From sequence record AP029160.1: a stretch of 64,000 bases of DNA. One strand, 5' to 3'. Of the stretch, positions 22,367-50,518 are shown in pieces; the stretch's first letter is position 1; every line of letters starts with the position of its first letter. The position numbers and the translations under genes are program-made. Source of the stretch: a plasmid. Below the pieces are notes generated by a model, which made no database searches, was not told where the DNA came from, and was given only the letters and a program-made list of their open reading frames with translations.

Positions 22367-22658
22367 ATGCCTGAAATTAAATATAGAGAGACTACGCTGG
22401 AAGATTCCGATCAAACGGCATTAATAATGAAAGAAAACTGGGGTGGTGAACCTCTAATAGTCAGGACTAGAAGTTATTTCCCTAGTAAATTAAACGGTAT
22501 TATTGCTCAATCAGGTGAAAAATGGATCGGATTTTTATTTTACGATATTCGAGGGGATGATTGTGAAATTATTGTCTTTGAAGTTTTCGAAAAGTTTAAG
22601 GGAATAGGAACAAAAATCTTAGAACAACTTATAACAATTGCTCAAAATAAACTCTGCA
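22367..22658 (+). pseudogene. GNAT N-acetyltransferase, N-terminal half (interrupted by IS6 copy A)
   Basis: GNAT beta-strand pattern ...CEIIVFEVFEKFKGIGTKILEQLI. The ORF runs into the IS. The C-terminal half lies at 49503..49698 on the other strand. Confidence 0.7.
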
Positions 22659-23478
22659 GGTTCTGTTGCAAAAAATATATAAGTGAGAGTGGAGTAACTT
22701 TTTTTTGGAGTTGTTTGAGGGGAGTGGCGATGGATTTCAAGTGGAAGCATACTGATCGTATGATTATCATAATGGCAATCCGTTGGTATGTAGGCTACTC
22801 CCTAAGTTATAGGCAAGTAGAAGAACTTTTAGCAGAGCGTGGTATTTTTGTAGATCACACGACCATTCATCGTTGGATTGTGGAATACAGTCCAAAATTA
22901 CTTAAGAAGTTTTATAAGCTTAGAAAGCGTATCTGTGGAAGTTGGCGAATGGATGAGACTTACATCAAAGTAAAAGGTGAATGGTGTTATCTCTATAGAG
23001 CCGTGGATAAGCATGGTCAAACGATTGATATTTACCTTTCAAAACGAAGAGATACAACAAGTGCCAAACGTTTTTTCCAAAAATGCTTTCGTTCTTCTGG
23101 AATCCCAGAAAAGGTAAATATTGATAAAAGTGGCTCTAATACGGCAGCATTAAAGGCTATCAACAAAGATCTTAAATCTGAAGATAAAGTTCTAATAAGA
23201 CAAAATAAATATTTAAATAACCTTGTAGAGCAAGACCATCGATTTATAAAAAAGAAAGTAAAGCCTATGCTTGGTTTCTTCTCATTGAAATCGGCGAGAG
23301 CTACTTTAGCAGGTATTGAACTCCATCATATGCTCAGAAAAGGGCAATTCAAATTTAAAAGTCATTTGCCTATTTGGGAGCAATTTTGCTCCCTCGCTGG
23401 ATAATTGCACCTACAGAGGACATTCTTGAAAAGTAACAACCCAATGTTTCGTGGCTTCTAATTATTTGCAACAGAACC
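22659..23478 (+). mobile_element. IS6-family (IS26-like) insertion sequence, copy A, 820 bp
   Basis: 14-bp inverted repeat GGTTCTGTTGCAAA at both ends. 8-bp left flank ACTCTGCA. Confidence 0.9.
22730..23404 (+). CDS. IS6-family DDE transposase
   Basis: MDFKWKHTDRMIIIMAIRWY...DETYIKVKGEW.YLYRAVD. Resembles the IS26 Tnp. Confidence 0.85.
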   Translation: MDFKWKHTDRMIIIMAIRWYVGYSLSYRQVEELLAERGIFVDHTTIHRWIVEYSPKLLKKFYKLRKRICGSWRMDETYIKVKGEWCYLYRAVDKHGQTIDIYLSKRRDTTSAKRFFQKCFRSSGIPEKVNIDKSGSNTAALKAINKDLKSEDKVLIRQNKYLNNLVEQDHRFIKKKVKPMLGFFSLKSARATLAGIELHHMLRKGQFKFKSHLPIWEQFCSLAG

Positions 23479-23660
23479 CTAGGGACACCCCTAATAGGGA
23501 TGCCCTTTTTTTTGAGATCGGAATATTACACAAAAACACACGATATATCATATTAATATTATTAAATAATTAAATTTATTTATACTTATTTTAAATTTTT
23601 ATATTTAAATAAAATTTTATTCCGATAGGAAAATGTTCTTATAAAAAAGGAGACTCTCAT

Positions 23661-24428
23661 ATGTCTAAAAGGATAATCTTATTTACTTTTCTTTCTTTTA
23701 TCGTTTTTAGCTGCTCAAAAGGTGAAGGTGGAAGCATTGATAAAAATTCGTCAGATGCAACGGCTAATAACGATCTTTGTAAAATTCATTCAACAGCAAT
23801 AAATTCTAACGAAAAAATATCATATCAATACAATGCAATTAATTCACAATGGGAACTACTTCCAAGCTATCAAATTACACCTGATACAACACAAGTAAGT
23901 GGCACACCAATTCAATTAAGTCCAAACTCTCCAGAAATGATTATTAGTGGAAATGTTGGGCAAATTCCAAATGTCAACAATTTTATATCTTATACTTTAA
24001 GTAATAGTAATTTTGTTTATTTAACTAAATTACCTTCAATACCAACTGATAAAAGTATCGTTCAAGTAAATACAAACTCTAATTACATAGCAACAATAGA
24101 TTCAACATTATTTGGTGGTAATTTAGCTGACCTTAAAGGAAATGCTGGTAATTTATTTATCCATCATAGTGTAATAACTTCTCCACTCTATTTCATATAT
24201 GATCAAGCTTCACAGTCTTGGAGCCTTGTAAATAGTGTTTTAAATTTAATGGCAGGAAGTATTGCTCAATTGAATGGGCAATTACCAAGTGGAAACTTTA
24301 GTGCAATTAATTTTAGTTTATCTGCATATAGCTTTGTAACACCAGTGTATTTACCTAAAAATCCAATTGATAAAATGAAAATTAATATAATTAATAATAC
24401 GAATCAAAATGCGAATATTTGTTACTAA
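23661..24428 (+). CDS. lipoprotein (255 aa)
   Basis: Lipobox FSC after the signal peptide. Ser/Asn/Thr-rich. Confidence 0.55.
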   Translation: MSKRIILFTFLSFIVFSCSKGEGGSIDKNSSDATANNDLCKIHSTAINSNEKISYQYNAINSQWELLPSYQITPDTTQVSGTPIQLSPNSPEMIISGNVGQIPNVNNFISYTLSNSNFVYLTKLPSIPTDKSIVQVNTNSNYIATIDSTLFGGNLADLKGNAGNLFIHHSVITSPLYFIYDQASQSWSLVNSVLNLMAGSIAQLNGQLPSGNFSAINFSLSAYSFVTPVYLPKNPIDKMKINIINNTNQNANICY

Positions 24429-24504
24429 ATTACAAATAAATTTTTGCAAATAATTAAGAGTTACGAATCAGAGGTGTGTTACTTTTCAATTAGGTTCCAT
24501 TTAG

Positions 24505-25324
24505 GGTTCTGTTGCAAAAAATATATAAGTGAGAGTGGAGTAACTTTTTTTTGGAGTTGTTTGAGGGGAGTGGCGATGGATTTCAAGTGGAAGCATACTG
24601 ATCGTATGATTATCATAATGGCAATCCGTTGGTATGTAGGCTACTCCCTAAGTTATAGGCAAGTAGAAGAACTTTTAGCAGAGCGTGGTATTTTTGTAGA
24701 TCACACGACCATTCATCGTTGGATTGTGGAATACAGTCCAAAATTACTTAAGAAGTTTTATAAGCTTAGAAAGCGTATTTGTGGAAGTTGGCGAATGGAT
24801 GAGACTTACATCAAAGTAAAAGGTGAATGGTGTTATCTCTATAGAGCCGTGGATAAGCATGGTCAAACGATTGATATTTATCTATCAAAACGAAGAGATA
24901 CAACGAATGCCAAACGTTTTTTCCAAAAATGCTTTCGTACTTCTGGAATCCCAGAAAAGGTAAATATTGATAAAAGTGGCTCTAATACGGCAGCATTAAA
25001 GGCTATCAACAAAGATCTTAAATCTGAAGATAAGATCTTAATAAGACAAAATAAATATTTAAATAACCTTGTGGAACAAGACCATCGATTTATAAAAAAG
25101 AAAGTGAAGCCTATGCTTGGTTTCTTCTCATTGAAATCGGCGAGAGCTACTTTAGCAGGTATTGAACTCCATCATATGCTCAGAAAAGGGCAATTCAAAT
25201 TTAAAAGTCATTTGCCTATTTGGGAGCAATTTTGCTCCCTCGCTGGATAATTGCACCTACAGAGGACATTCTTGAAAAGTAACAACCCAATGTTTCGTGG
25301 CTTCTAATTATTTGCAACAGAACC
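24505..25324 (+). mobile_element. IS6-family IS, copy B, 820 bp
   Basis: Same inverted repeats as copy A. Confidence 0.9.
24576..25250 (+). CDS. IS6-family DDE transposase
   Basis: Identical family to 22730..23404. Confidence 0.85.
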   Translation: MDFKWKHTDRMIIIMAIRWYVGYSLSYRQVEELLAERGIFVDHTTIHRWIVEYSPKLLKKFYKLRKRICGSWRMDETYIKVKGEWCYLYRAVDKHGQTIDIYLSKRRDTTNAKRFFQKCFRTSGIPEKVNIDKSGSNTAALKAINKDLKSEDKILIRQNKYLNNLVEQDHRFIKKKVKPMLGFFSLKSARATLAGIELHHMLRKGQFKFKSHLPIWEQFCSLAG

Positions 25325-26123
25325 CACTTATAAACCTAAAGATAAGGCCAAAGTAGAAGTCGGGGTACAAGTAGCACAACGCTGGATCCTTGCTAAACTC
25401 AGAAAACAATTATTTTACTCAATTCAAGACATTAATGAAGCCATCTCTCCATTACTTGAAGCTTTAAATCATAAAAAGATGAAACACTTAAATGTTTCTA
25501 GATATGAATTGTATGAGCAATATGAAAAAAACCAACTCAAACCCCTACCTAAAGAACACTTCGAATTATATGAGTGGCGAAAAGCAAAAGTAAATATAGA
25601 TTACCATGTCCAATTTGAGTGTAATTATTACAGCGTTCCTTGTCATTATGTACATAAAAATGTTGAAATACGAATAACAACTAATACAATTGAAATATAT
25701 TTATCTAATAAAATGATTGCCGTTCATAAAAGACTTTTTTTAGTTGGCAAATATTCAACATACAAAGAGCACATGCCTCAGTCTCATCAGAAACATGTTG
25801 AGTGGACTCCAGAAAGAATGTTGAAATGGGCCTCCAATATAGGAGTTTCAACAAAAACATGTTTTGAAATTATGATTTCCAGAACTCAACACCCAGAACA
25901 AGGATTTCGTTCTTGTCTAGGTATACTTCGCCTTGGCCAACAATATTCTAATCTAAGATTAGAAAACGCTTGTTTAAGAGCCCTAAATACCGACCAAGTG
26001 AGTTTCAAATCAGTGAAAAATATCTTAAAAAACAACTTAGATAAAATAATAATAACTGAAACAAAAAAGAATGTCATAAATATTGAACACGAAAATATAC
26101 GTGGTTCTGATTATTATAATTAA
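25325..26123 (+). pseudogene. istA: IS21-family IstA transposase, C-terminal fragment (5' end removed by IS6 copy B)
   Basis: The frame is open from the IS boundary (KPKDKAKVEVGVQVAQRWILAKLR...). The C-terminal region is IstA-like. Confidence 0.65.
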
Positions 26124-26149
26124 TGTAATTAAAAAAAAGGATAAATAGC

Positions 26150-26907
26150 ATGTTGAATGCACAGATTATAGAGCAATTAAAAAAATTAAATTTAAATATG
26201 TTTATGCAAGAATTAGAAGAGCAAGAAAAAAATAATGGCTATAAAGTTCTTTTTCTGATAGATTATCACTTCTGCTACAAAGAGAAATCCTTGAAAGAGA
26301 AAATAAAAATATTAAGCGAAAAATAACAAATGCAAAATTAAAGCAAAAAGCAAGTCTAGAAAATATTAAAACCAGCCTGGAACGTGGATTAGATAAAACA
26401 GCTTTACAATCACTAAGTACCTGTGAATGGTTAAAAAGAAAACAGAATATCATAATTACAGGAGCAACAGGTGTAGGAAAAAGTTTTTTAGCTTCAGCAT
26501 TAGCAGAAAAAGCATGCAGATCTGGATTTCAAGCTAGATATTTTCGCTATCAAAGTCTTTTATCTGAGCTTACGTTTTCAGTTGCTGATGGTTCATTTAA
26601 AAACTACTTACTAAAACTAGAAAAATTAAATTTAATCGTAATTGATGATTGGGCTTTGCATTCTATAACAGAAATAGAACAAAAATATTTATTCGAACTG
26701 ATTGAAGCTAGAAGTGAAAATTCTTCTACAATTTTTGTCAGCCAAACACCAATAGCAAGTTGGCATTCTCTCATGCCTAATTCTACCATTGCAGACGCTA
26801 TTCTGGATAGAATTGTTCACACTGCGATAAGAATTGAACTCAAGGGGGAATCCATGCGGAAAAAATCAGATCATAAAATTGACGAGGAGACTGCGATTAT
26901 GAAATAG
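26150..26907 (+). pseudogene. istB: IS21-family IstB ATPase, frameshifted
   Basis: The N-terminus MLNAQIIEQLKKLNL and the Walker A ITGATGVGKSFLASALA plus VIDDW are in different frames. Confidence 0.6.
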
Positions 26908-27445
26908 AATCTTTGAGCAGAATCATAGCCTCTACGGATGCCGCTTTCAATCGGAAACCCGTACCGAATTCGATTGGAATTCACCACCGCTTTCAGCGGA
27001 ATATGCAATAATAACTAAAAATAATAAACTATACCTAGGAGAAAGTAAATATCATCATGATAGATACTATTATCAGGATGATGTTTTAAATAAAAGCTAT
27101 TACATAAATGATCATTCATATTTTAAATCAGAGAATTTTTTTATTGATAAAGAAAATGAAAAAATAACACTAAAATATAAATATACCTCACCTGTTTGGA
27201 TTGAAGAAAATAAAGTAAATGATGTAATAATTCATAATATAGAAAGAAATAAAAAAATGGCTTTTTTTATAAATAACTTATTTAATTAATTTTTAGTTTA
27301 ATCTTATTTAAATACGCATTCTCAACTCTTAAATGGCATATATAGTTCATTGAAATTTCGAAATAAATAATTTAAATTTAAAAATATCTAGAAAAAGAAT
27401 GCACATTACTAATATTTTAAATATTCAAGTTTTACAATTAAGAAT

Positions 27446-28252
27446 TCATTTTAAAGTTTCAAGTATATGATTTCTAGCTTGCTTTTGTATTGTAAATGCA
27501 TCAAGAATTAAATTTGATGCCATATAACTTTCATATTTATTACTTTCAAAAAATAAATTAAATAGATTTAGAGAAGTATAATACTCCGTATTTACTTTAT
27601 TAAGTGATTTTGCTCTATACAATATATCTCTTCCTGTTTTTAGCGCCCTTTTGCAAAACCTATCCCATTTTAAGTTTGCATTATGAATTGCATATTCAAC
27701 TTCCTTAGATTCTAAATAGTTTTTTCCTATTTTATGATAAGGATACATTGGGGCCCAAGATGCTGAAGATCCCAAATGCATTGATGAAGGAGGATATCCG
27801 TTTGCATGCATAAATAAACTACAGCCCAAACATGATGCAAGTTTTGTAGTTTTCTTACCTACAGCAATTTCATATGGCTTTGATTCATTTCCTTGTGCTA
27901 AGCTAATATAAATTCCCTGAACCATGCCATGAGTATAACCAACTATATCAGTTTCTATATTACCATCTGAATAAACTACGGAAGCCATACCTTCGATGAG
28001 ATAATCTTTATCATTTAAATTTTTTATTGACAGGATTCCCCAAGGAAGATTGTCAGGATAATTTTTTCTTTTTTTTGGATTCCATCTTTCTCCTCTAGAA
28101 ATTTTATATTCTCTATACATATCACTTATGAAATAATAGTTATCCCTAGGAATAGTAGTCCTTATAGTCGATGAATAAGAAGTTCGACCATTTTTGTGCA
28201 GCACACAGCCAGTATAAGCACCAATACCTTGATATCCAAAACTTTCATCCAT
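27446..28252 (-). CDS. hypothetical protein (269 aa from internal Met MDESFGYQG)
   Basis: The ORF-track N-terminus comes from IS-derived sequence. The native start is probably 29 bp from the IS end. Confidence 0.4.
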   Translation of the reverse strand: MDESFGYQGIGAYTGCVLHKNGRTSYSSTIRTTIPRDNYYFISDMYREYKISRGERWNPKKRKNYPDNLPWGILSIKNLNDKDYLIEGMASVVYSDGNIETDIVGYTHGMVQGIYISLAQGNESKPYEIAVGKKTTKLASCLGCSLFMHANGYPPSSMHLGSSASWAPMYPYHKIGKNYLESKEVEYAIHNANLKWDRFCKRALKTGRDILYRAKSLNKVNTEYYTSLNLFNLFFESNKYESYMASNLILDAFTIQKQARNHILETLK

Positions 28253-28281
28253 AGCAATTTCAATTAAATCTCTAGAAGGTG

Positions 28282-29101
28282 GGTTCTGTTGCAAAAAATA
28301 TATAAGTGAGAGTAGAGTAACTTTTTTTTGGAGTTGTTTGAGGGGAGTGGCGATGGATTTCAAGTGGAAGCATACCGATCGTATGATTATCATAATGGCA
28401 ATCCGTTGGTATGTAAGCTACTCCCTAAGTTACAGGCAAGTAGAAGAACTCCTAGCAGAGCGTGGTATTTTTGTAGATCACACGACAATTCATCGTTGGA
28501 TTGTGGAATACGTTCCAAAATTACTTAAGAAGTTTTATAAGCTTAGAAAGCGTATCTGTGGAAGTTGGCGAATGGATGAGACTTACATCAAAGTAAAAGG
28601 TGAATGGTGTTATCTCTATAGAGCCGTGGATAAGCATGGTCAAACGATTGATATTTACCTTTCAAAACGAAGAGATACAACAAGTGCCAAACGTTTTTTC
28701 CAAAAATGCTTTCGTTCTTCTGGAATCCCAGAAAAGGTAAATATTGATAAAAGTGGCTCTAATACGGCAGCATTAAAGGCTATCAACAAAGATCTTAAAT
28801 CTGAAGATAAAGTTCTAATAAGACAAAATAAATATTTAAATAACCTTGTAGAGCAAGACCATCGATTTATAAAAAAGAAAGTAAAGCCTATGCTTGGTTT
28901 CTTCTCATTGAAATCGGCGAGAGCTACTTTAGCAGGTATTGAACTCCATCATATGCTCAGAAAAGGGCAATTCAAATTTAAAAGTCATTTGCCTATTTGG
29001 GAGCAATTTTGCTCCCTCGCTGGATAATTGCACCTACAGAGGACATTCTTGAAAAGTAACAACCCAATGTTTCGTGGCTTCTAATTATTTGCAACAGAAC
29101 C
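28282..29101 (+). mobile_element. IS6-family IS, copy C, 820 bp
   Basis: Inverted repeats GGTTCTGTTGCAAA. Confidence 0.9.
28353..29027 (+). CDS. IS6-family DDE transposase
   Basis: As above. Confidence 0.85.
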   Translation: MDFKWKHTDRMIIIMAIRWYVSYSLSYRQVEELLAERGIFVDHTTIHRWIVEYVPKLLKKFYKLRKRICGSWRMDETYIKVKGEWCYLYRAVDKHGQTIDIYLSKRRDTTSAKRFFQKCFRSSGIPEKVNIDKSGSNTAALKAINKDLKSEDKVLIRQNKYLNNLVEQDHRFIKKKVKPMLGFFSLKSARATLAGIELHHMLRKGQFKFKSHLPIWEQFCSLAG

Positions 29102-29167
29102 GTTATACTTAGTCCATTTATTTCAGGAACTATAGAACCATGGGAAAATATACAAATTTGTATAACA

Positions 29168-29794
29168 TTGCTGTGTTTAATGGAACAAAGCAGAATATTT
29201 GAGCCATGCTTTATAAGATATATTTCAAGTTTAGATAAGCCATATAGTTGTAGCGAAATAAGTCCAGAAAAGGCAATTCCTACATTACCAGTTTTATACA
29301 AGGATATAAATAGTCTTTTAAAAGAAATCCAAGCATTTCAAACAAAAAAAATTATGGATGATATGTCTGTACGATCCGCTTTTAGTTGGTTTCATCGATC
29401 ACTTAATGTCAATGATGACAACTTTAAATTTCTTTCAGCTTGGATTGCTTGCGAAACTATAACAAAATCTAAAGAAACTAATGTAAAAAAAATTGTAAGA
29501 TCTCTTCATGAACATTTAATAAATGATTCTAGTTTTTATCAATATAACAATGAAAAAGAAGCAAAAGAGTACCTTTTACTTGGTCGATTGCATGGCATTC
29601 GGGGCGCAATTACTCATACTGGAAATGAAAATATTATTAATAATCTCTTTATAACATATGTACAATTATTATTTGCTGAAATGGTCTTTGCTTATTATAA
29701 ATTACCACCAACGAAATTAATTTATTATTTTTTAAAGGATAATCGTTCAAATTTATGTTCACTTCTTCAGCAACATAAAGCGATTAAATGCTAA
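29168..29794 (+). CDS. hypothetical protein (208 aa)
   Basis: ORF track only. Confidence 0.35.
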   Translation: MLCLMEQSRIFEPCFIRYISSLDKPYSCSEISPEKAIPTLPVLYKDINSLLKEIQAFQTKKIMDDMSVRSAFSWFHRSLNVNDDNFKFLSAWIACETITKSKETNVKKIVRSLHEHLINDSSFYQYNNEKEAKEYLLLGRLHGIRGAITHTGNENIINNLFITYVQLLFAEMVFAYYKLPPTKLIYYFLKDNRSNLCSLLQQHKAIKC

Positions 29795-29843
29795 TGAAAA
29801 CTCTTAAATTGTATTATTCAATACTATAGCAGCATTCTCATAT

Positions 29844-30209
29844 TTAATCATTTCGAGAGAAAAAGGCAAAGAAGATCGGTACCTCACTTAGTCTAACCGA
29901 TTCTAGTCTCAAGGGCTTTGGGAATAGTCCAATTGTCTTTGGGAACTGACATACTGGTAATATAATTATTGCTAAAATAGCAATTAAAAGTGGGCATAGA
30001 TAAAAAGATGAATTATGAAGTTTCTCAATTTGACAAATTTTTTTATCAATATCTAAGCCAGAAAATATTATTAGAAAAAATTTCCAGTTAACAACTATAA
30101 AAAAAATAGAATAGTTAATAACTAATTTATTAGTAAGTCTTTCATCAATGATTTTTTTTGCAATATCTGTTAATTCAACTTTAGAATTTAACTCCATAGC
30201 TATCCTCAT
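29844..30209 (-). CDS. small membrane protein
   Basis: Two hydrophobic segments. Confidence 0.3.
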   Translation of the reverse strand: MRIAMELNSKVELTDIAKKIIDERLTNKLVINYSIFFIVVNWKFFLIIFSGLDIDKKICQIEKLHNSSFYLCPLLIAILAIIILPVCQFPKTIGLFPKPLRLESVRLSEVPIFFAFFSRND

Positions 30210-30763
30210 AATTTAATATTATTTATTAAATTATGATTATATTAAAAAAATATTGATTTTATCGTCAAAATATTTCTGAGTACTTGTTTAAAAAATCTTA
30301 AGTTGCAAATTAAATTTTTAGTATGAGTTAGCAGTCAATTGACTGCTAAGAAATTTGATTTTTTAGCTCTTCTGAAATATTTTAAAGACTTACTGAACTA
30401 GGCTTGTGGTCTAAAAATAAAATTTAGATTGTGAACAAGTTAAAGCTTCTTGAAACGCTCGTCTCTAGCATTAGGGGTAATCTGCAACAAGGGTACTTCT
30501 ATGTAAGTATTTTTTTTGATAGCTCATCTGCCAAGTGCGGGGGTTCCTGAATATTCAGGCCAAAAGTCTAACAAAGAAAAAGTTATCATTGCATTTCAAT
30601 GGTAACTCTTAAAAACCGAAAAAACATTATCCTACTTTTTCCCTTTTTCGTTCCAACCACTTTTTAGCCCTCCTTGTGCAAAAAATTTTTCTAACATAGA
30701 ATGCATACCATTGTAATTGTTACAAAATAGAAAATTTTTTTTGCACACAAAAGGAGGAATTTT

Positions 30764-31171
30764 GTGAGATCAATTGTGAAGTTAATCGCAGTTTGCTCAA
30801 CATTAGCTTTGAGTCATCCAATATTTGCAAATACCAATATTGGTATTAATGTTGGTAATCATTACTTTGGTATAAGTCATTATCATAGTAATGGTGATCA
30901 TTATTATGGTGGTGGTGTCTACTTTGGAGGAAAATACTATGATGCGGTAGGTGGATATTACTTTAATGGTATTTATTATGATGCCTACGGCGGATATTAC
31001 TATAATGGTGGTTACTATACTTCTTCAGGAGTTTTCTTTGGAGGTATTGGTGGATATTATAAAGGAGGTCTCTTCTTCGATATTTATGGTGGATATTATA
31101 GTGTAGAAGGCTACTATTATGTCCCATATGGTGGTTATTACGATCAATATGGTATTTACCATGCTAGTTAA
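30764..31171 (+). CDS. secreted Gly/Tyr-repeat protein (135 aa)
   Basis: Signal peptide, then repeated GGYY / YYDAxGGYY units. GGAGG RBS. Confidence 0.5.
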   Translation: MRSIVKLIAVCSTLALSHPIFANTNIGINVGNHYFGISHYHSNGDHYYGGGVYFGGKYYDAVGGYYFNGIYYDAYGGYYYNGGYYTSSGVFFGGIGGYYKGGLFFDIYGGYYSVEGYYYVPYGGYYDQYGIYHAS

Positions 31172-31285
31172 TTCTGTTCTATTGCAAATAATTAAGAGTT
31201 ATTTTTAATTACAATGAAAACTCTTCTTTTGCTAGAATTTTGATCAGTATATCTGAAAAGCCCCAAATGTAGAAAGAGAAAAGCC

Positions 31286-31312
31286 CCACTCTAAGAATGG
31301 GGCTTTTTTATT
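31286..31312. terminator. bidirectional rho-independent terminator
   Basis: aaaagcccca-ctctaagaa-tggggctttttt. Confidence 0.6.
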
Positions 31313-31427
31313 TGTCTTGTAAATTTTGGAAAGTTTGACAGTCAATTGACTGTCATGAGGTTTGAGTTTTCCCTTTAAAGTTAAAAAAAAGCCCCAACAA
31401 AGCTGAGACTTTGTGAACTGCTCGACC

Positions 31428-32792: not shown

Positions 32793-32839
32793 AAGTTCTC
32801 CTTAATGCTAATCTAGCATTCGTTTATTTTGGAGTCAAT

Positions 32840-34745: not shown

Positions 34746-34747
34746 AC

Positions 34748-35110: not shown

Positions 35111-35166
35111 AGAGGTGAGCTAAGTAAGGCTGGAATTCAGTGACAAGGGCTCCATCTACTTGCCCT

Positions 35167-40164: not shown

Positions 40165-40166
40165 AA

Positions 40167-42658: not shown

Positions 42659-42917
42659 TTAATAACCTTATAGTAAAAATATTTATTTTGCTCTTAGCCA
42701 AGATATAGTAACAGAGTCTTTTTTAGTAAAGCCTGCATTTTTTGCACATGTTTAATATTTTGTTTTTATAGGTCTTTACTTTTATTCGCTTGCTTTTGAA
42801 ATTTGAATTTCTTTTTTAGGCTACAAGGCTAGCTCAATAGGACTTTTTTTAAAGAGTTTCAATTTGATTTAAAATATGATAAGATAGAATAAAATATTTA
42901 ATTTAAATTTAAAATCT

Positions 42918-43766
42918 ATGAATTTTGATTACTATAGGAGAAATATGGATTTATTAAAAATACAAAAATTATACAAAATTACTTTTGTATTTTTTATATT
43001 TTTTATACTTAAAAAAGTAGCATTTGCCGATGATCTGTGCCCAGCTCCTTGGAAAATTGGAATTTATGATAACCCACCTTTTCAAACATTAATAAATGAA
43101 AAGGAAAGTGGCCTAGATATAGATATTATTACGGAAGTAGTAAAAAGACTGAATTGTAAAGTTTTATTAATTAAAATTCCATGGAGCAGACAATTTTATG
43201 AAGCCAAAACAGGAAAACTCGATATCATAATGGGAGCGGGAAAAAGAAAAGATAGAGAAGAATATTTATATTATTTAACACCTTATAAAAATCTTCCTTC
43301 AGTTATTGCATTCATGAATAGTTCTAAAACTCCTAAATCATTTAATTTAAGTAATTTAAAAAATATGGATATTACTATTGGAGCTTTAATAGGCGCAGTT
43401 TATAGTGACGAATATGAAAATTTAATAAAAGATCCGGAATTTTCCTCAAAAATTGAACTTTCTTCTAAAACTGAATTAATTATTAATAAATTAAGGCTAG
43501 GAAGAATAGAGGGTGCCTTTTTCACTGGGATTTTAGAGGTAAAAAATCTGATGCCTAAAGAGTACAAAAACAATGAATTAATTATTTATCCAATATCTTC
43601 AGTTGACTATGGATATTTTGCATACAGCAAAAAAACTTTTGACCTTATAAAGGCAAAAAAGATAGATAAAGTCATTCAAGACATGAACTCTGATGGAACT
43701 ATAAAAAAACTAATGAAGAAATATTTCAATCAAAATGAAATTAAAAGCATATCTGTATCTTCTTAA
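42918..43766 (+). CDS. family-3 solute-binding protein
   Basis: Signal peptide, then APWKIGIYDNPPFQ. Confidence 0.55.
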   Translation: MNFDYYRRNMDLLKIQKLYKITFVFFIFFILKKVAFADDLCPAPWKIGIYDNPPFQTLINEKESGLDIDIITEVVKRLNCKVLLIKIPWSRQFYEAKTGKLDIIMGAGKRKDREEYLYYLTPYKNLPSVIAFMNSSKTPKSFNLSNLKNMDITIGALIGAVYSDEYENLIKDPEFSSKIELSSKTELIINKLRLGRIEGAFFTGILEVKNLMPKEYKNNELIIYPISSVDYGYFAYSKKTFDLIKAKKIDKVIQDMNSDGTIKKLMKKYFNQNEIKSISVSS

Positions 43767-44378
43767 AAATTGGCACTGAATATCTTTTAAAGGAAATTTA
43801 ACTCTTCTATAGTCAAAAAATAAAACACCAATGAATCAATTAAAATCATTTAATTAACCTGATTTTGAAAAATTCAAAAAATCGCCTAAATAATAATCAA
43901 CTATAAACTAATCTCTTGTTTGCAAATTTAAAACATCATCCAAATTGGAGAAAATTACAAAAGCTATATTTGAAGAACAAATTTACAAAGAAATATATAA
44001 AAAACCCCTCACAAGAGGGGTTGTCTCGAGGAGTGAGACAGGATCTTGGAAATCCCGCTTCCAGTTTAGCAAATTTTTTTTGAAAAAAAAGAGATTTTCA
44101 AATTAAATCGAAATTATATTTAAAATTAAACGAAATTAATTACAACAGATTTGAAATACCTTTTGTTATTAATCAGAAAGACATCAATTCTTTTCTTATC
44201 AGCAGAAAACTGTCTTAATAAAAACTTTGGTACATAATGATGCTTACGTTCTTGAGCCATAGGAATCTCCAGTTAGTATTTCCTTGCTGAATTTTTCTTG
44301 TGATGTTATTTTATTTTTAGTTAATGCCTCGATTTACAATCTGTGTTTTTATAAAAATGTTTTTGTAATAAATATAAA

Positions 44379-44987
44379 TTAATTCAAACAATGCCCATTT
44401 TGTAATTTTTTTATCTTTTGATTAAATTCATCGAAACTTATTTTGTAGGCAATTTCATCTTTTTGTGGCCATACTTTCATTACATATGTAATTATATTTT
44501 GGTGGCGTATAATTTGTTCTTTCCCCACTATCCAACTTTCAACATTCATTTCTTTTATTTTTGGATACATTAACCTATAGTAATCTTCCATTGCAGCTTG
44601 ATTATCTGCGTTTTCAGCAAAAATTAACAGCGCAACAATCTGATTGCATTTTAAACAAGGCAAAATTTTACTTGGAATTTTATGATAATTAGGCATTATA
44701 TTTTGTTGGAAATGATGAGAATCTGTTTCTTTCATTTTTGATTGAGTTGATTTTTCAATTTCAGCAATCATTGATTTTGTTATTGGTTCAAGTATTTCTA
44801 AGCGTCTTTTTGTCGTAGGATCTTGTGGATCTCCGACTACTTCACTTGAGAAATGACACATTCCTTTTTTTTCGCTTACAACAATTCTTCCCAGATCTCC
44901 TAAATTTTCATGTCGAATGATATAGGCAACTGAATTTTGAATGATTTCTTTTCGACAAGAAATTCCTTTTGGTAATGTGTAATTCAT
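44379..44987 (-). CDS. hypothetical protein (202 aa)
   Basis: ORF track. 13-bp gap to the upstream gene. Confidence 0.4.
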   Translation of the reverse strand: MNYTLPKGISCRKEIIQNSVAYIIRHENLGDLGRIVVSEKKGMCHFSSEVVGDPQDPTTKRRLEILEPITKSMIAEIEKSTQSKMKETDSHHFQQNIMPNYHKIPSKILPCLKCNQIVALLIFAENADNQAAMEDYYRLMYPKIKEMNVESWIVGKEQIIRHQNIITYVMKVWPQKDEIAYKISFDEFNQKIKKLQNGHCLN

Positions 44988-45000
44988 TTAATTATCCTTT

Positions 45001-46128
45001 TTAATCTTCATTGACTTCTTGAATATTTGTGGGGAGATTTAACTCCCATTGTTTTCCTTTTTTTATCAGGGTTCCCTGGCATACGATTGGAACTTTTTTG
45101 TCATGAGCTACCACAAATTTAGAATCATCATCATCAGCAGCACGAATAATTATCGAAGAAAGTTTACCGTCAATTTGAGTTTTAACTGTAACTTTACCTT
45201 CAGATTGATTTGCATCTCGTTGTAATTTTACAATCAATCCAAATATTTTTTCGTCTGGACGAGGTTCTTGATTCGTAAAACGTTTGGCAGCTTCTTCAAG
45301 AATACCGCTCCAACGTCCATAAAAATGTTGCCTGTAGATGGGTTTATTTGAGGGCCTAGAGTTGGCCCATGTGATACTTAATTCTACTTTCTCGGATAAT
45401 TTAGTTAAATTAGATAGAGCTTGGCAGATATTCGCATTTACCCCATGTTCTATCCTTGATGAAAATACATCAAAATCCTGACTTGTTTCAGAAATGGTAA
45501 GTGCTTTATGTGTTGCTTCTAGAGCTTCACATAATTTTAATGTTACCTTTCTTTCAAAAGGCTCATCTTCTAAGGAAATCTCATCTCTATTCTTTGAAAA
45601 TGAAGGATTTACGGGTGAAAGGAGTGTAAAAATAAAACTTCCTCTTTCCGTGTGGCCTAGTTTGAGTTTTGAAATATAGTTTGCAACTTGGTCTGGCTTC
45701 TTCCCTAAATAAGCCGCTCGCGGCTCTAAAGCAGAGCATGCAGAGGCGTTTGTAAGCTCGTAAATACTCTTTATGGCATCGACTCCTTGCGTTGCAGGAA
45801 CCCCCTCTGTTGCGCTATTTTCTGTAATGCGCACTCGAATGACATCGACTTCCGATTTTTTTAATGCTGAGATAATCTCAATTTGAGAACGTTTTTCTTG
45901 TTTTTCCAATACACTGACAAGATCTCTTATCCTAAATGCATAATCTCCAAATTCTGTTTTAAGTGGACAGAGGACTTCATATGTTTCATTATCTACTTCT
46001 TTTTCCCAGATATTTGCTTTGCCTGGTATGGATTTAGCTGGTCGCCATCCATTAGAGGAAAGATATGAAGAAATATTGTTAGGAGTGATTTGAGAAAAAG
46101 TTTCAGAATCTTTTATATCAACCTTCAT
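45001..46128 (-). CDS. hypothetical protein (375 aa)
   Basis: ORF track. No recognisable motif. Locally GC-richer by eye. Confidence 0.4.
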   Translation of the reverse strand: MKVDIKDSETFSQITPNNISSYLSSNGWRPAKSIPGKANIWEKEVDNETYEVLCPLKTEFGDYAFRIRDLVSVLEKQEKRSQIEIISALKKSEVDVIRVRITENSATEGVPATQGVDAIKSIYELTNASACSALEPRAAYLGKKPDQVANYISKLKLGHTERGSFIFTLLSPVNPSFSKNRDEISLEDEPFERKVTLKLCEALEATHKALTISETSQDFDVFSSRIEHGVNANICQALSNLTKLSEKVELSITWANSRPSNKPIYRQHFYGRWSGILEEAAKRFTNQEPRPDEKIFGLIVKLQRDANQSEGKVTVKTQIDGKLSSIIIRAADDDDSKFVVAHDKKVPIVCQGTLIKKGKQWELNLPTNIQEVNED

Positions 46129-46220
46129 ATTTTCTCATCCTCATGTAGTTTTTTAAAAAGCAGATCAAGTTGTTCTTTATTAAATATATTTGGTTTTGGA
46201 CCGTCTAATAGGGACACCCC

Positions 46221-46562
46221 ATAGAGATAACACCATTCACCTTTTACTTTGATGTAAGTCTCATCCATTCGCCAACTTCCACAGATACGCTTTCTAAGCT
46301 TATAAAACTTCTTAAGTAATTTTGGACTGTATTCCACACTCCAACGATGAATGGTCGTGTGATCTACAAAAATACCACGCTCTGCTAAAAGTTCTTCTAC
46401 TTGCCTGTAACTTAGGGAGTAGCTTACATACCAACGTATTGCCATTATTATAATCATACGATCAGATCAGAATGCTTCCACTTGAAATCCATCGCCACTC
46501 CCTCAAACAACTCAAAAAGAAAGTTACTATACTCTCACTTCTATATTTTTTGCAACAGAACC
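46221..46562 (-). mobile_element. IS6-family IS, 3'-truncated partial copy (inverted repeat at 46549-46562)
   Basis: IR TTTGCAACAGAACC at 46549-46562. The transposase ORF is intact only to ...GEWCYLY. Confidence 0.8.
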
Positions 46563-46648
46563 AAAATTTGGGCGCAAATTAATTGAAATTATCGTTTTGC
46601 TTTGGCGCACGCTATTTGAAATCGGGCGCACAATAATTGAATTTATAC
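46563..46648. repeat. GGCGCA-unit repeat element, copy 2 (3 units)
   Basis: Matches 15029..15140 minus one unit. Abuts the IS fragment. Confidence 0.5.
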
Positions 46649-46725
46649 AAAAATACAATTTTTTTAATTAATTTATAAATGAATTTTCTTATTTTTATTA
46701 TTTATTTAGAAAGCTTAATTTTTAT

Positions 46726-47595
46726 CTATTTTGAATTTTTTGTACCTGAATCAATATTAGCGGGTTCAATTTTAAAATCCCTTGTTAGAGGAACAAGAGA
46801 ATCGGGACCAAACCATTTATTAAAAATTTCTTTTGCTCTTCCTGATTTCTCCATATCTTCTAAAGTATCATTAATGAGTTTTAATAAATCATCTGAATTT
46901 TTCCTTACACCAATTCCATAAGGCTCCGAAGAAATATCAAAGTTTGTTATTTGAAAATCAGATTTACTTTTCATATTTGAAAGAATCCCAGCTAGAACTG
47001 ATTCATCTGTTGTAATTGCAAAAATTTTCTCAAGGTAAAGTGCGTGCGCTGCTTGGGAATAATCTTCTAATCCTAGAACAGTTGCTTTAGGAAGATATTT
47101 TTTGGTATTTGTTTCAGCTGTTGAACCTTTTGAAGTAATAATTATTTTACCATCTAAATCTTTTAATTCATTGACAGTACCTTTATGAACTAAAAATTTC
47201 TGTTTTGAAACAAAATATTGATGACTAAAGTCAATTTCTTCTTTTCTTTTACTAGTTATTGTCATTGTACATATTAAAATATCTACTTCTTTTTTTATTA
47301 ACAATGGGATTCTTGTAGATGAAGTAACTGCTTTAAAAACAGGCTTGACATTTAGCCTATTTGCAATCTCATTAGCAAAATCTATATCATACCCTTCTAA
47401 TATTCTTGTTTTTTTATCGATTTTCTTTAAATATCCAAATGGAATTACGTTGTCTTTTATACCAAAAATAATCTCATTTTTCTTTTTAATTTCTGGAATA
47501 ATATCTGCATAAGATAATTGATTATAAGATATGAATTGGCATATAAAAGCAAAGAATATAATAAATTTTATAATAAAATAACTTAATTTAGTCAT
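46726..47595 (-). CDS. family-3 solute-binding protein
   Basis: Signal peptide. The MCP gene stop overlaps the start (ATGA). Confidence 0.55.
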   Translation of the reverse strand: MTKLSYFIIKFIIFFAFICQFISYNQLSYADIIPEIKKKNEIIFGIKDNVIPFGYLKKIDKKTRILEGYDIDFANEIANRLNVKPVFKAVTSSTRIPLLIKKEVDILICTMTITSKRKEEIDFSHQYFVSKQKFLVHKGTVNELKDLDGKIIITSKGSTAETNTKKYLPKATVLGLEDYSQAAHALYLEKIFAITTDESVLAGILSNMKSKSDFQITNFDISSEPYGIGVRKNSDDLLKLINDTLEDMEKSGRAKEIFNKWFGPDSLVPLTRDFKIEPANIDSGTKNSK

Positions 47596-49082
47596 AAATC
47601 TCCTTTAATTAATATTTCAATTTCTTTTGCTGTTTTGTCTAATTTAGTGCTTTCATCTACTAATTTAATTGCAGAATTTGAGTTAGTTTCAGCCGCCCCC
47701 TTACAGTATTGAGTAGTTTTATCAATATCTCCCATTGATGAAGCAATTTGTCTTACACCAACCTCTTGCTCTTGCGTAGCCTCAGATATATGTGAAATAG
47801 TATTTGTCATAGTTGAAATATCTTCTGCAATTTTTTGGAAAGCATTTTGAGCTTCTGTCGTTACTAATTTTCCTTCATCAATTCTTTCTTTTGTTATTCC
47901 AAGAATCTTATTTACTTGTTCCTGACTTTTTGTAATTAATTCTTGAATTTCATTTGCTGATTTACCACTTATTTTTGCCAATGCCCCAACTTCTTCTGCA
48001 ACAACAGCAAATCCTTTACCGTGTTCTCCTGCCCTTGCAGATTCTATTGAAGCGTTTAAGGATAATAACTCAGTCTTTGCAACAATCTCATTAATTACAG
48101 TTGTTTTAGAGTTTATTTGTGAAATAATTTCAGCAATTTCTTGTAATTTATTATTTGATTCTTGGATATTTTGCATCGCAAATACAAGTTTCCGCATTAT
48201 TGCCTGGCCTTCATTTGCTTTTGAAGTCGCACTTTCTGCAATTTTTCTAGATTCATTTGAGTTTTCAGACGTTCTATTTACCATACTTGTAATCTGATTG
48301 ACCGCAGCCCCCGTTTTTAAAACAGCTTCTCCTTGTTCAATAACTGTTTGAGACAATGAATTTGCATCTTTTTTTAAAAGCATAGCAATATCATTTGTTG
48401 AAATACTTTGTTTCTTTAAATTTTCGATCCCATGAATAATAGAACTTGTTGAGATATTTACAATTCTAAAGATTATAATTGAAATAATTAAACTTAGTGT
48501 AAATATTATAATCATTCCAATAATGGTTATTTTAGTAAAGTAAGCCCCTTTTCTAGTAGAATTAAGTGCTCCTTTATAATTAATATCAGCAATTTCAAAA
48601 AAACTCGATTCTGCTTTTTTCATAAGAGGTAATGCTTTTGTTTTAATTAAATTAAGAGCTCCTTTTTCATCATTTTTTTCTGTGTTTTTAAAAATTTCAT
48701 TTACCAAAGAGCGAATTTCATCCCATATTGGTAAAAATTTTTGCAATTCAGCACGCTCTTCTTTCTCTGTGATTTCTGTTTCATATATGGTAATTAAGGC
48801 ATTTATTGACTTTATTGTGTCATTTATTACAGCTAATTGATCTTGATATTCATCTTTATCTGAAATGGTTAAAAGTTCAAATTGAAGCGACTTTAATAAT
48901 ATAATTCTTGCAACAATGCGTTGAGCAGTATCAACGCTTGGTAACCAGCTTAGACCTGTTTCATCAGCAAATTTATTTGTTGTGATAATCATTGAAATTG
49001 TATAAATTGAAGTAATAAATATTAAACTAAGTAAGATAAATATTGAAGTATAAAGTTTAAATGGTAAGCTTTTCTTTTTCAT
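47592..49082 (-). CDS. methyl-accepting chemotaxis protein
   Basis: TM, then the highly conserved MCP signalling domain LSLNASIESARAGEHGKGFAVVAEEV. Confidence 0.8.
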   Translation of the reverse strand: MKKKSLPFKLYTSIFILLSLIFITSIYTISMIITTNKFADETGLSWLPSVDTAQRIVARIILLKSLQFELLTISDKDEYQDQLAVINDTIKSINALITIYETEITEKEERAELQKFLPIWDEIRSLVNEIFKNTEKNDEKGALNLIKTKALPLMKKAESSFFEIADINYKGALNSTRKGAYFTKITIIGMIIIFTLSLIISIIIFRIVNISTSSIIHGIENLKKQSISTNDIAMLLKKDANSLSQTVIEQGEAVLKTGAAVNQITSMVNRTSENSNESRKIAESATSKANEGQAIMRKLVFAMQNIQESNNKLQEIAEIISQINSKTTVINEIVAKTELLSLNASIESARAGEHGKGFAVVAEEVGALAKISGKSANEIQELITKSQEQVNKILGITKERIDEGKLVTTEAQNAFQKIAEDISTMTNTISHISEATQEQEVGVRQIASSMGDIDKTTQYCKGAAETNSNSAIKLVDESTKLDKTAKEIEILIKGDL

Positions 49083-49502
49083 TTTATTTCTCTTTATAAA
49101 AATTGTTAGTATTTATATTTTATATTAATTAAGTGTTAAATCATGTCAAATTTTTTCTATTCTCTATTAGTGATAATAAAATTACAAAATAAATGATGGT
49201 AACAGAATATTAAAACATTATTGGAATTTAAAAAACTCTAAAAATGTATGCCTAACTATTTTGCAATTCGAAGAAAACGATGGTTTATTTGATGCTTTTT
49301 TTATTTCAAATACTACGATTAGATAGTATTTGCTAAACCGCCTTTTTTCCGTTCCAGCCGCTCGGTACCCCTACTAGGGGTTATTTGCAAGAATCCCCGA
49401 GATTATATACCAAGATGAACTTATTCTTTAATATGAAGAATATCTTTTCTTTTTGAGTGGATCTAATAACAATCAGATTTAAGAATATCTAATGTAAGCC
49501 CC

Positions 49503-49698
49503 TTAAAGTATCAACTCTAAATCAATTTCATCCCTAATAGGAATGCCATAATCTCCTATTTCTGGGCATGGCTTTATTTTTCTGGCAATTTCCATTGAGT
49601 TAATATGTATACAGCAAATATGAAAACCTCTTCTTTGATAGAATCTTAATGCATCAAGATTATCATTATGCGTCATAAGATAGAGCCTCTTGCAGAGT
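49503..49698 (-). pseudogene. GNAT N-acetyltransferase, C-terminal half
   Basis: Translation LCKRLYLMTHNDNLDALRFYQRRGFHICCIH... It continues the 22367..22658 frame through the duplicated LC codons. Confidence 0.65.
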
Positions 49699-50518
49699 GG
49701 TTCTGTTGCAAATAATTAGAAGCCACGAAACATTGGGTTGTTACTTTTCAAGAATGTCCTCTGTAGGTGCAATTATCCAGCGAGGGAGCAAAATTGCTCC
49801 CAAATAGGCAAATGACTTTTAAATTTGAATTGCCCTTTTCTGAGCATATGATGGAGTTCAATACCTGCTAAAGTAGCTCTCGCCGATTTCAATGAGAAGA
49901 AACCAAGCATAGGCTTTACTTTCTTTTTTATAAATCGATGGTCTTGCTCTACAAGGTTATTTAAATATTTATTTTGTCTTATTAGAACTTTATCTTCAGA
50001 TTTAAGATCTTTGTTGATAGCCTTTAATGCTGCCGTATTAGAGCCACTTTTATCAATATTTACCTTTTCTGGGATTCCAGAAGAACGAAAGCATTTTTGG
50101 AAAAAACGTTTGGCACTTGTTGTATCTCTTCGTTTTGAAAGGTAAATATCAATCGTTTGACCATGCTTATCCACGGCTCTATAGAGATAACACCATTCAC
50201 CTTTTACTTTGATGTAAGTCTCATCCATTCGCCAACTTCCACAGATACGCTTTCTAAGCTTATAAAACTTCTTAAGTAATTTTGGACTGTATTCCACAAT
50301 CCAACGATGAATGGTCGTGTGATCTACAAAAATACCACGCTCTGCTAAAAGTTCTTCTACTTGCCTATAACTTAGGGAGTAGCCTACATACCAACGGATT
50401 GCCATTATGATAATCATACGATCAGTATGCTTCCACTTGAAATCCATCGCCACTCCCCTCAAACAACTCCAAAAAAAAGTTACTCCACTCTCACTTATAT
50501 ATTTTTTGCAACAGAACC
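49699..50518 (-). mobile_element. IS6-family IS, copy E, 820 bp
   Basis: Inverted repeats. Low-coordinate flank TGCAGAGT, the reverse complement of ACTCTGCA. Confidence 0.9.
49773..50447 (-). CDS. IS6-family DDE transposase
   Basis: As above. Confidence 0.85.
   Translation of the reverse strand: MDFKWKHTDRMIIIMAIRWYVGYSLSYRQVEELLAERGIFVDHTTIHRWIVEYSPKLLKKFYKLRKRICGSWRMDETYIKVKGEWCYLYRAVDKHGQTIDIYLSKRRDTTSAKRFFQKCFRSSGIPEKVNIDKSGSNTAALKAINKDLKSEDKVLIRQNKYLNNLVEQDHRFIKKKVKPMLGFFSLKSARATLAGIELHHMLRKGQFKFKSHLPIWEQFCSLAG

Follow-up and report, generated by a model that had tools for sequence, protein, structure and literature searches.

In the plasmid-borne stretch of Pigmentibacter ruber GTC16762 analysed here (AP029160.1; the window, 64 kb in its entirety), a gene encoding a GNAT acetyltransferase lies in two halves on opposite strands, each half abutting one of two identical, oppositely oriented copies of an IS6-family insertion sequence (IS), and the 26,220 bp between them are inverted relative to the N-terminal half and its left flank. 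The inversion was probably produced by a single intramolecular replicative transposition in trans by this IS6/IS26-family element. A very close P. ruber relative (run DRR420811) retains the uninterrupted gene on one contig, L004, and serves as the exact empty-site reference.

The split GNAT gene and its empty site

The features that define the inversion are the following.

22367..22658, plus strand: N-terminal part of the GNAT acetyltransferase gene (codons 1-97 plus 1 nt), identical to L004
22651..22658, plus strand: first copy of the target-site duplication, ACTCTGCA, against the IRL of IS copy A
22659..23478, plus strand: IS6-family IS copy A, 820 bp, with its transposase gene at 22730-23404 (224 aa)
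23479..49698: inverted block, 26,220 bp
46726..49082, minus strand: genes for a solute-binding protein (289 aa) and a methyl-accepting chemotaxis protein (MCP; 496 aa), assigned by Pfam and collinear with GNAT in L004
49503..49698, minus strand: C-terminal part of the GNAT gene (codons 98-159 plus stop, with the duplicated 8 bp ahead of them)
49691..49698, minus strand: second copy of the duplication, ACTCTGCA on this strand, against the IRR of IS copy E
49699..50518, minus strand: IS6-family IS copy E, inverted, identical to A at 820/820 positions
50519..51061, plus strand: 3'-terminal remnant of another Tn3-family transposase gene, cut by the IRL of E (DDE_Tnp_Tn3 positions 223-389)

The left flank of IS A ends with ...AATAAACTCTGCA, the 8-mer occupying 22651-22658, and the plus-strand flank to the left of IS E is TGCAGAGT (49691-49698), the reverse complement of ACTCTGCA. 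The 8-mer occurs twice in the window, each time against an IS end, and when all 8-bp IS flanks across the window were compared in direct and inverted sense, no matching pair was found besides that of A and E. With 22367-22658 joined to the reverse-complemented 49503-49690, a single 159-aa open reading frame results, and in it the Pfam domain Acetyltransf_1 (PF00583; 47 bits against a cutoff of 20.7, E 3e-12) spans residues 43-120 and crosses the junction at residues 97/98. The joined protein has 4027 homologues, many with 95-100% coverage, and a 159-aa protein from public assemblies (P0001) is 100% identical to it over 100% of its length. The sequence-only reading had described halves on opposite strands, a shared 8-bp duplication and a seamless frame, with coordinates and sequences that all prove correct to the base.

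In contig L004 the gene order is Tn3-type tnpA, resolvase, intact 159-aa GNAT, MCP and solute-binding protein, and position 22658 is joined straight to 49690, with homology continuing down to 46573. After reversal in silico (the IS and one 8-mer removed, the right-hand piece flipped), window positions 18385-22658 followed by the reverse complement of 46573-49690 reproduce L004 at 7392/7392 bases. L004 has the 8-mer a single time, against two occurrences in the window (at the junctions of A and of E), so that the target duplication is demonstrated directly. The uninverted arrangement, for which a search among related genomes had been suggested, thus exists in a near-identical relative that keeps GNAT uninterrupted and collinear with its neighbours. 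Taken together, these sequence comparisons establish that GNAT was formerly intact and was then split by an element of the IS6 family, which duplicated 8 bp of target, and that the MCP and solute-binding protein genes, as judged from L004, originally lay directly downstream of the transposon that carries GNAT. The GNAT gene is destroyed: the frame of its N-terminal half continues into IS A as an in-frame fusion to the transposase reading frame, a chimeric ORF of 345 aa (22367-23404). The inversion accounts for the two annotated GNAT fragments and the chimeric GNAT-transposase ORF in this genome.

The DRR420811 strain differs from the window by 3 SNPs over the 19.3 kb of contig sequence compared. 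Its GNAT gene contains no IS, and an IS oriented like the donor flanks the 51426-53192 segment on the same side (L018). This IS abuts 51426, not 50519, and the spacer gene described below was looked for in this strain and not found, which makes it a sister genome, not the literal ancestor. In a second strain (CM133241.1) segments homologous to the window are chromosomal, with an additional rearrangement within the block. No relatives were found in PLSDB, and scans of GTDB representative genomes with the GNAT protein and then with the MCP protein returned no match.

The IS6-family element and its copies

Further copies of the element, and a unit in which two of them take part, are present in the window.

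23479..25324, plus strand: spacer and IS B, the 1026-bp spacer containing a 255-aa ORF (23661-24428)
24505-25324, plus strand: IS copy B, B-type, 13 differences from A
28282..29101, plus strand: IS copy C, 9 differences from A, without matching 8-bp flanks
46221..46562, minus strand: IS fragment D, IS positions 1-338, 95% identical to the A-type; old, also present in strain CM133241.1
53193..55858, plus strand: second IS-spacer-IS copy (F, spacer, G), 100% identical to A-spacer-B
53193-54012, plus strand: IS copy F, A-type, identical to A and E
55039-55858, plus strand: IS copy G, B-type
55859..56587, plus strand: older IS variant H, truncated (IS positions about 91-820), with G directly against it; full-length in CM133241.1

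All six complete copies in the window are 820 bp long, within the range of about 700-890 bp given for the IS6 family (PMC7986276), and the terminal inverted repeat GGTTCTGTTGCAAA is identical at both ends (14/14). The 224-aa transposase, of a length inside the family's span of 213-254 aa, scores 256.3 bits with NF033587 (transpos_IS6; cutoff 125) and 154 bits with PF13610 (DDE_Tnp_IS240; cutoff 27, E 3e-45). On all these sequence features the element is a member of the IS6 family, probably an unnamed one. A and E agree at 820/820 positions; from 9 to more than 24 differences separate them from B/G, C, H and D. The identity of A and E is by itself weak evidence, because F is identical too. Mosaics of A-type and B-type sequence, a trace of homologous crossover, were sought among the window copies and none were found; the last 213 bp (26% of the IS length) are the same in both types, and a crossover within identical terminal parts would leave no hybrid copy.

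A, the spacer and B form an IS-spacer-IS unit of 2666 bp. In each of its two copies the left-hand IS is A-type and the right-hand IS B-type, and neither copy has target duplications. Many further IS events have affected the region, the duplication of this unit among them. Within the protein collection, the spacer ORF was found in this genome only, and its gene occurs at least three times in the GTC16762 genome. The 214-aa ORF to the right of IS B was looked up and nothing was on record.

The Tn3-family carrier of GNAT

The sequence to the left of GNAT and that just beyond its C-terminal half, as far as 49377, belong to a transposon with the following parts.

18415..18493: left terminal inverted repeat, beginning GGGGTTATTTGCAAGAATCCCCGAGATT
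18543..21595, minus strand: Tn3-family transposase gene tnpA, in two overlapping ORFs (171 aa, 18543-19058; 858 aa, 19019-21595)
21660..22274, plus strand: serine resolvase gene tnpR, 204 aa (Pfam Resolvase, 3e-38)
49377..49456: right terminal inverted repeat, outer end at 49377

The terminal repeats, of about 80 bp, are 85% identical left against right, with a perfect match over the first 28 nt. The 858-aa ORF of tnpA contains Pfam DUF4158 and DDE_Tnp_Tn3 positions 1-244, the 171-aa ORF supplies positions 245-389, and the gene is split likewise in L004; the larger piece scores 433 bits with NF033527, below the cutoff of 500. GGGG-initiated inverted repeats, a tnpA with DUF4158 and DDE_Tnp_Tn3 and a serine resolvase are features of the family, and on this sequence evidence the carrier is a Tn3-family transposon of 4.56 kb with GNAT as its passenger gene. 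Several contexts unrelated to one another contain it, one of them a plasmid backbone with a TrwC relaxase, and tnpR adjoins GNAT in every public context. Other metagenomic contexts diverge at 49377, and in L007 and L008 5 bp further, at 49372. A 5-bp target duplication of the carrier is absent in L004 and in the window alike (flanks AATTT and TAGTA), so that the flanks of this copy do not derive from one simple insertion. One contig (L011) was considered as an empty site of the carrier and rejected, since homology begins 5 bp past the inverted repeat and the left flank is unrelated, so that it is not clean.

Extent and contents of the inverted block

The claim that everything from about 23479 to about 49698 had been inverted holds when the GNAT flanks are taken as reference; the block itself is no undisturbed unit, as it includes the spacer and B of the IS-spacer-IS unit together with extra IS material (two further IS copies and one IS fragment in all, with unmatched flanks). 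The gene content proposed for its interior is broadly right: an IS200/IS605 element, a HigB/RelE-like toxin and HTH partners, a TniA/TniB-like pair with a resolvase, and the MCP and solute-binding protein genes. The proposed search for a GC-skew discontinuity gave no usable signal at A or E, and the test is uninformative here because GC and AT skew follow the local coding strand in a mosaic of about 30% GC.

A type II CRISPR-Cas9 locus adjoins this mobile-element-rich region. When the spacers of the neighbouring CRISPR array were compared with the mobile elements of the window, the best match was 17/30 nt, with no self-targeting.

Mechanism of the inversion

We infer that insertion and inversion were one event, and likewise which copy was the donor. 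In the proposed course of events, the donor IS would have been oriented on the minus strand, its IRL adjoining the truncated second Tn3-type transposase gene (now starting at 50519), presumably the old donor flank, and its IRR adjoining the sequence that now starts at 23479. The two 3'-OH ends of the IS would have attacked the 8-bp target ACTCTGCA on opposite strands, at a site about 26 kb away on the same molecule, within the GNAT gene of the Tn3-family transposon. Replication through the IS would then have produced the identical, inverted copies A and E with the 26.2 kb between them inverted, and the 8 bp would have been duplicated in inverted orientation, outside the block at the IRL of A and inside it at the IRR of E. 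The geometry predicted for transposition in trans follows from the Shapiro model, and in IS6/IS26-family elements such an event combines insertion, IS duplication and inversion (He et al. 2015, PMC4471558; Varani et al. 2021, PMC7986276). The window has the arrangement that the replicative in-trans model predicts: oppositely oriented copies bracket the segment, A (plus) at the N-terminal half of GNAT and E (minus) at the C-terminal half, and ACTCTGCA precedes the IRL of A outside the segment and follows the IRR of E, in E's own orientation, inside it. The presumed old donor flanks, CTAGGGAC at the IRR of A and CATTAGCA at the IRL of E, do not form a direct repeat, and no clean insertion of the donor itself can be recovered from them.

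The sequence-only reading had put a single insertion first and recombination between inverted IS copies second. The insertion with its 8-bp duplication and the inverted arrangement stand; the order of two events is unnecessary, because the pattern is the published signature of one in-trans event (PMC4471558, PMC7986276). A two-step course is unlikely, though it deserves serious weight: a simple insertion of the IS in GNAT, flanked by direct 8-bp repeats, would have been followed by RecA-dependent recombination with a pre-existing inverted copy next to 50519, flipping the 26 kb in between. It would yield exactly the observed junctions, the 820-bp identical inverted repeats would be good RecA substrates, many IS copies in the region could recombine, and the close relative already has an inverted IS beside the 51426-53192 segment (L018). 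However, in the IS6 family the insertion itself proceeds through cointegrate formation and resolution, so that three events (cointegrate, resolution, inversion) would be needed where one is enough, and the intermediate is absent among the public contigs compared. Direct 8-bp repeats, as left by a simple insertion, are found at none of the six complete IS copies in the window (0/6), which suggests that this IS, like IS26, rarely ends as a simple insertion and lowers the prior for the two-step course; for the same pattern, the IS26 literature favours the one-step route (PMC4471558). Both routes yield identical sequence, and one-step transposition in trans is judged the more likely and the more parsimonious.

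It is improbable that the inversion came about through the IS-spacer-IS unit, either by insertion of A-spacer-B in GNAT as a pseudo-compound transposon and a crossover between B and an inverted copy, or by arrival beside A, earlier or later than the inversion, of a translocatable unit made up of the spacer and a B-type IS. Such a path is favoured by the two 100% identical copies of the unit, both lacking target duplications, by a spacer gene repeated in this genome and not found in the close relative, and by the fact that a crossover in the shared last 213 bp would leave no hybrid. Against it, the 8-bp duplication lies at the IRL of A and the IRR of E, the ends of single IS copies, the outer flank of B, CACTTATA, is without the 8-mer, and more steps would be required, with the crossover confined to 26% of the IS length. 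Inversion mediated by the Tn3 family through a second carrier copy next to E was rejected, as no DNA or tblastn similarity to the carrier tnpA was found there.

Support for the junctions and the assembly

The GTC16762 genome is a hybrid assembly of ONT and short reads with Unicycler bridging (PMC11385108). Short-read contigs of the strain itself (DRR523861) agree with the window base for base at four junctions, namely GNAT-N to IS (L015), IS to GNAT-C (L012), IS to 50519 (L024) and IS-spacer-IS (L022), and the four IS junctions are real in this strain. The long-range order across identical IS copies rests on the published ONT-bridged assembly. The 345-aa fusion ORF was looked up for linkage across IS A, with nothing on record. 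An assembly artefact, in which IS copies were wrongly bridged and the real genome is uninverted, or a mixed population with both orientations, is very improbable: the set of junctions (GNAT-N/IRL, IRR/GNAT-C, IRR/spacer, IRL/50519) is the same in either arrangement, so that the short-read confirmation is no proof of long-range order, and the short-read graph of the strain branches without explanation at 51401-51430, but the ONT reads (216x, mean length 8.3 kb, N50 13 kb; PMC11385108) far exceed the 0.82-kb IS and the 2.67-kb unit, and in CM133241.1 the MCP segment has, compared with the window, the opposite orientation relative to the 55859-62971 segment, as would follow if the inverted arrangement of the window is the derived one.

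Significance and comparison with known systems

For P. ruber, a recently described species that causes human sepsis, the case documents how an active IS6-family element reshapes a region rich in mobile elements, and the IS26-type signature of one-step inversion proves readable in a distant phylum; the value of the case is modest and chiefly practical. A tentative further reading, less probable than its opposite, takes the inversion as micro-evolution of very recent date within a clinical clone of a human pathogen now emerging, driven by a current burst of an IS6-family element. This reading draws on the three 100%-identical A-type copies, the thrice-copied IS-spacer-IS unit unique to the isolate, and a sister isolate about 1 SNP per 6 kb apart yet separated by at least two IS events. 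If it is true, GTC16762 and the DRR420811 strain would show, as a pair found in nature, the states before and after one-step in-trans transposition in a host belonging to neither Enterobacteriaceae nor Firmicutes. Recombination between A and E may also still be able to flip the 26-kb block.

The case is a fresh instance of a known, textbook IS6/IS26-type mechanism and reveals no new one. In-trans inversions by IS26 have been described in pKPN-068, pKPC-727, pENT-576 and pKpQIL-234 (He et al. 2015, PMC4471558), and as in those cases, opposite IS6-family copies stand beside the two parts of a disrupted gene, an identical 8-bp sequence flanks them in inverted orientation and tens of kb between them are flipped. 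The comparison of pKpQIL-10 with pKpQIL-234 is paralleled by a "before" relative that lacks one IS and keeps its target intact. Unlike the IS26 cases, the host is P. ruber (Silvanigrellaceae), not a member of the Enterobacteriaceae, and no resistance genes are involved. The element is also a different family member, with the terminal inverted repeat GGTTCTGTTGCAAA, as compared with GGCACTGTTGCAAA in IS26. It shares with IS26, IS257/IS431, IS1216 and IS240 (PMC7986276) the perfect 14-bp inverted repeats, a single DDE transposase (here of 224 aa), the 8-bp duplication, the IS-bounded units with direct IS repeats and the predominance of copies without direct target repeats. RecA-mediated inversion between inverted repeats has an end product that is indistinguishable here; alone, it creates no new IS copy or target duplication, so that a prior insertion in GNAT would be needed. 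The carrier resembles Tn3-family transposons with passenger genes in its GGGG-initiated inverted repeats, tnpA and tnpR, and, unlike in the intramolecular inversion by Tn4401 (He et al. 2015), the Tn3 element is here the victim, not the agent.

Copies of an IS6-family element

A repeated element of 820 bp with perfect 14-bp terminal inverted repeats (GGTTCTGTTGCAAA; IRL and IRR for the left and right ends) is present in the window in the complete and fragmentary copies listed below. The product of its 224-aa ORF scores 256 bits with the NCBIfam IS6-family model, above the cutoff of 125, and also matches Pfam DDE_Tnp_IS240; the element probably lacks an existing name.

Copies and fragments of the IS6-family element (coordinates, strand where assigned, description)
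9093-9351, fragment just upstream of cas9
22659-23478, +, complete copy A
24505-25324, +, complete copy B
28282-29101, +, complete copy C
46221-46562, -, fragment D
49699-50518, -, complete copy E
53193-54012, +, complete copy F
55039-55858, +, complete copy G
55859-56587, fragment H

Copies A, E and F share one sequence throughout. B and G share another, which departs from that of A at 13 sites; in C the number of such sites is 9, and H and D diverge more. None of the complete copies in the window is flanked by direct repeats. At 55039-56587, copy G runs directly into the variant H, which it meets at about H position 91. Tandem IS-IS junctions of this sort typically arise from IS26-type targeted events or from adjacent deletions. 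A second Pigmentibacter ruber strain, CM133241.1, has H in full.

A split acetyltransferase gene and its intact counterpart

The octamer ACTCTGCA (22651-22658) lies immediately left of the IRL of copy A, and the octamer at the IRR of copy E reads TGCAGAGT on the + strand (49691-49698); apart from these two sites it is absent from the 64 kb. Comparison of IS flanks within the window, in both the direct and the inverted sense, yielded no other matching pair. When 22367-22658 is joined to the reverse complement of 49503-49690, a single ORF of 159 aa results, the GNAT domain of which (Acetyltransf_1, aa 43-120) crosses the junction. This joined ORF has a full-length, 100% identical counterpart in the database protein P0001, whose contigs include L004 (7392 bp) from sequencing run DRR420811, where a Tn3-type transposase, a resolvase, the intact GNAT, a methyl-accepting chemotaxis protein (MCP, 496 aa) and a solute-binding protein (289 aa) follow one another. 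The pre-event sequence was rebuilt from 18385-22658 and the reverse complement of 46573-49690, with the IS and one octamer copy removed, and matches L004 at 7392/7392 bases. Thus, the GNAT gene was formerly uninterrupted, exactly 8 bp were duplicated, and the DNA that now runs from 49690 down to 46573 once directly followed 22658 on the same strand. The sequence-only reading had placed the junctions, the octamer and the split gene exactly so, and the octamer, the joined ORF and L004 bear out the structure that it proposed.

At 22367-23404, the N-terminal half of GNAT continues in frame across the left end of copy A into the transposase, giving a chimeric ORF of 345 aa (97 aa of GNAT, a 24-aa linker and the 224-aa transposase). 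The chimera is probably accidental; it could put translation of the transposase under the tnpR-GNAT expression signals.

Support from the assembly

Exact protein matches assign the window to Pigmentibacter ruber GTC16762, a blood isolate. Its genome is a Unicycler assembly that combines short reads at 293x (DRR523861) with ONT reads at 216x (N50 13 kb, DRR523860) (PMC11385108). Logan contigs of DRR523861 agree exactly with the window over four junctions.

Junctions matched exactly by contigs of the window strain
GNAT-N/IS, contig L015
IS/GNAT-C, contig L012
IS/50519, contig L024
IS/spacer/IS, contig L022

An uninverted simple insertion would have these junctions as well, so that it is the ONT bridging of the published assembly that carries the long-range order; a contig running through copy A was sought and not found. 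Short-read contigs of the window strain stop at 51401-51430, and a contig of the ONT run continues straight through (L018, L019, L024).

The Tn3-family transposon carrying GNAT

The GNAT gene is a passenger of a 4558-bp Tn3-family transposon, which also carries a serine resolvase and leaves the MCP and solute-binding protein genes outside.

Terminal repeats of the transposon, starting with GGGGTTATTTGCAAGAATCCCCGAGATT
18415-18493
49377-49456

Its tnpA is split into ORFs of 858 and 171 aa, a split shared by the window strain and DRR420811, and the element lacks a 5-bp target duplication. The tnpR-GNAT-IR module (18415-22658 and 49377-49698) recurs in many unrelated metagenomic settings (L001-L010, L013-L017) with an identity of 99.7-100%; homology stops at the outer end of the IR (49377) or, in L007 and L008, 5 bp farther out. 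In several of them (L001-L003, L013, L014) the module stands beside a TrwC relaxase and T4SS backbone, and its left boundary at 21610, just upstream of tnpR, suggests an exchange at the res site.

Comparison with relatives

The genome behind DRR420811 is, judged by sequence, a distinct but very close relative: 6435 bp of segment 56558-62992 contain 3 dispersed SNPs, and a further 12.9 kb of compared sequence contains none. For CM133241.1, a 7.1-kb alignment that overlaps most of this segment (55859-62971) shows 36 mismatches. In DRR420811 the IS is present on the donor side and absent from GNAT. There its IRL adjoins window position 51426 instead of 50519, and 50519-51425 is missing (L018, L019, L024), consistent with a 907-bp IS-adjacent deletion in that strain.

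The corresponding 21.5-kb locus of CM133241.1 (L011, 563993-585483) was compared with window segments 30451-31363, 46281-49372 and 55859-62971. The order of the shared segments differs there from that in the window, a Fic-domain gene stands at the place of the GNAT transposon, and the sole IS variant is the older H-type, which is 94% identical to the A-type; the A-type seems to have expanded in the GTC16762 lineage specifically. Relative to 55859-62971, the MCP segment is oriented opposite to that of the window, which fits a derived state of the window. Segment 30451-31363 also differs in relative orientation, so the interior of the block was further rearranged in one lineage or the other.

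Further rearrangement and other genes

The units A-spacer-B (22659-25324) and F-spacer-G (53193-55858), 2666 bp each, are 100% identical, so that the inner flank of A is not unique. In each, a 1026-bp spacer is enclosed by an A-type IS (left) and a B-type IS (right), with no target duplication at either unit. The 255-aa ORF of the spacer occurs in the protein collection in this genome only, in at least three copies (BFD33548, BFD33588, BFD33609), with no relatives at 90% identity or more elsewhere in the collection; DRR420811 yielded no copy of it. The distribution points to a putative translocatable unit that may have spread next to existing IS copies. The 12-mer TAGGGACACCCC with a CTAATAGGGA-like sequence is found at the spacer start at copy A (23479-23500) and at 46205-46220, the point where fragment D is cut off; these sites may represent the end of another mobile element. 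The inversion is one readable event within a heavily reworked region.

Other genes include a type II CRISPR-Cas locus (2255-8857), whose spacers do not match the mobile elements of the window (best 17/30 nt), and mobile and defence-type genes within the inverted block (31428-40745).

Other features of the window
2255-4269, CRISPR array of 31 repeats (36-bp repeat GCTGAGACTTGCAGTGAATAAACGCTTTGATATGCT, 29-30-bp spacers)
4707-5597, -, cas1
5594-8857, -, cas9 (1087 aa)
33726-34130, RelE/HigB-like toxin with small partner
35944-36459, IS5-family transposase fragment
36703-37686, TniB-like AAA ATPase
within 31428-40745, IS200/IS605 element (TnpB 454 aa, Y1 TnpA 158 aa)
within 31428-40745, truncated TniA-like DDE protein (398 aa vs 550 aa in relatives) with serine resolvase
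within 31428-40745, PIN-domain protein

Mechanism of the inversion

The flank linkages were traced through the replicative (Shapiro) pathway. Opposite-strand intramolecular attack would generate a - IRL[IS]IRR - (inverted segment) - IRR[IS]IRL - d, with the octamer predicted at the inner IRR of one copy and, inverted, at the outer IRL of the other, and the window read on its reverse strand has exactly this form. The old flanks of the donor IS would be the sequences starting at 50519, a truncated Tn3-type transposase unrelated to that of the GNAT transposon, and at 23479. The identity of A and E, the lack of direct repeats at every complete copy, and the close relative with an IS on the donor side and none in GNAT argue for one-step intramolecular replicative transposition, which we consider the somewhat more probable course. 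The order of events in the sequence-only reading, a simple insertion into GNAT followed by recombination between two inverted IS copies, here taken as a RecA inversion, yields the same sequence and is given a distinctly lower, tentative weight.

One-step transposition also has a precedent in the inversions described for IS26 by He et al. 2015 (PMC4471558), where a gene is split between oppositely oriented copies with identical, mutually inverted 8-bp flanks, and where a single step is favored over insertion plus recombination; the scheme in a review of the IS6 family (PMC7986276) agrees with this. The pattern in the window is the same, and the A/E inversion, unsurprising to specialists, extends the well-documented behaviour of the IS6/IS26 family to a further case from a new host.
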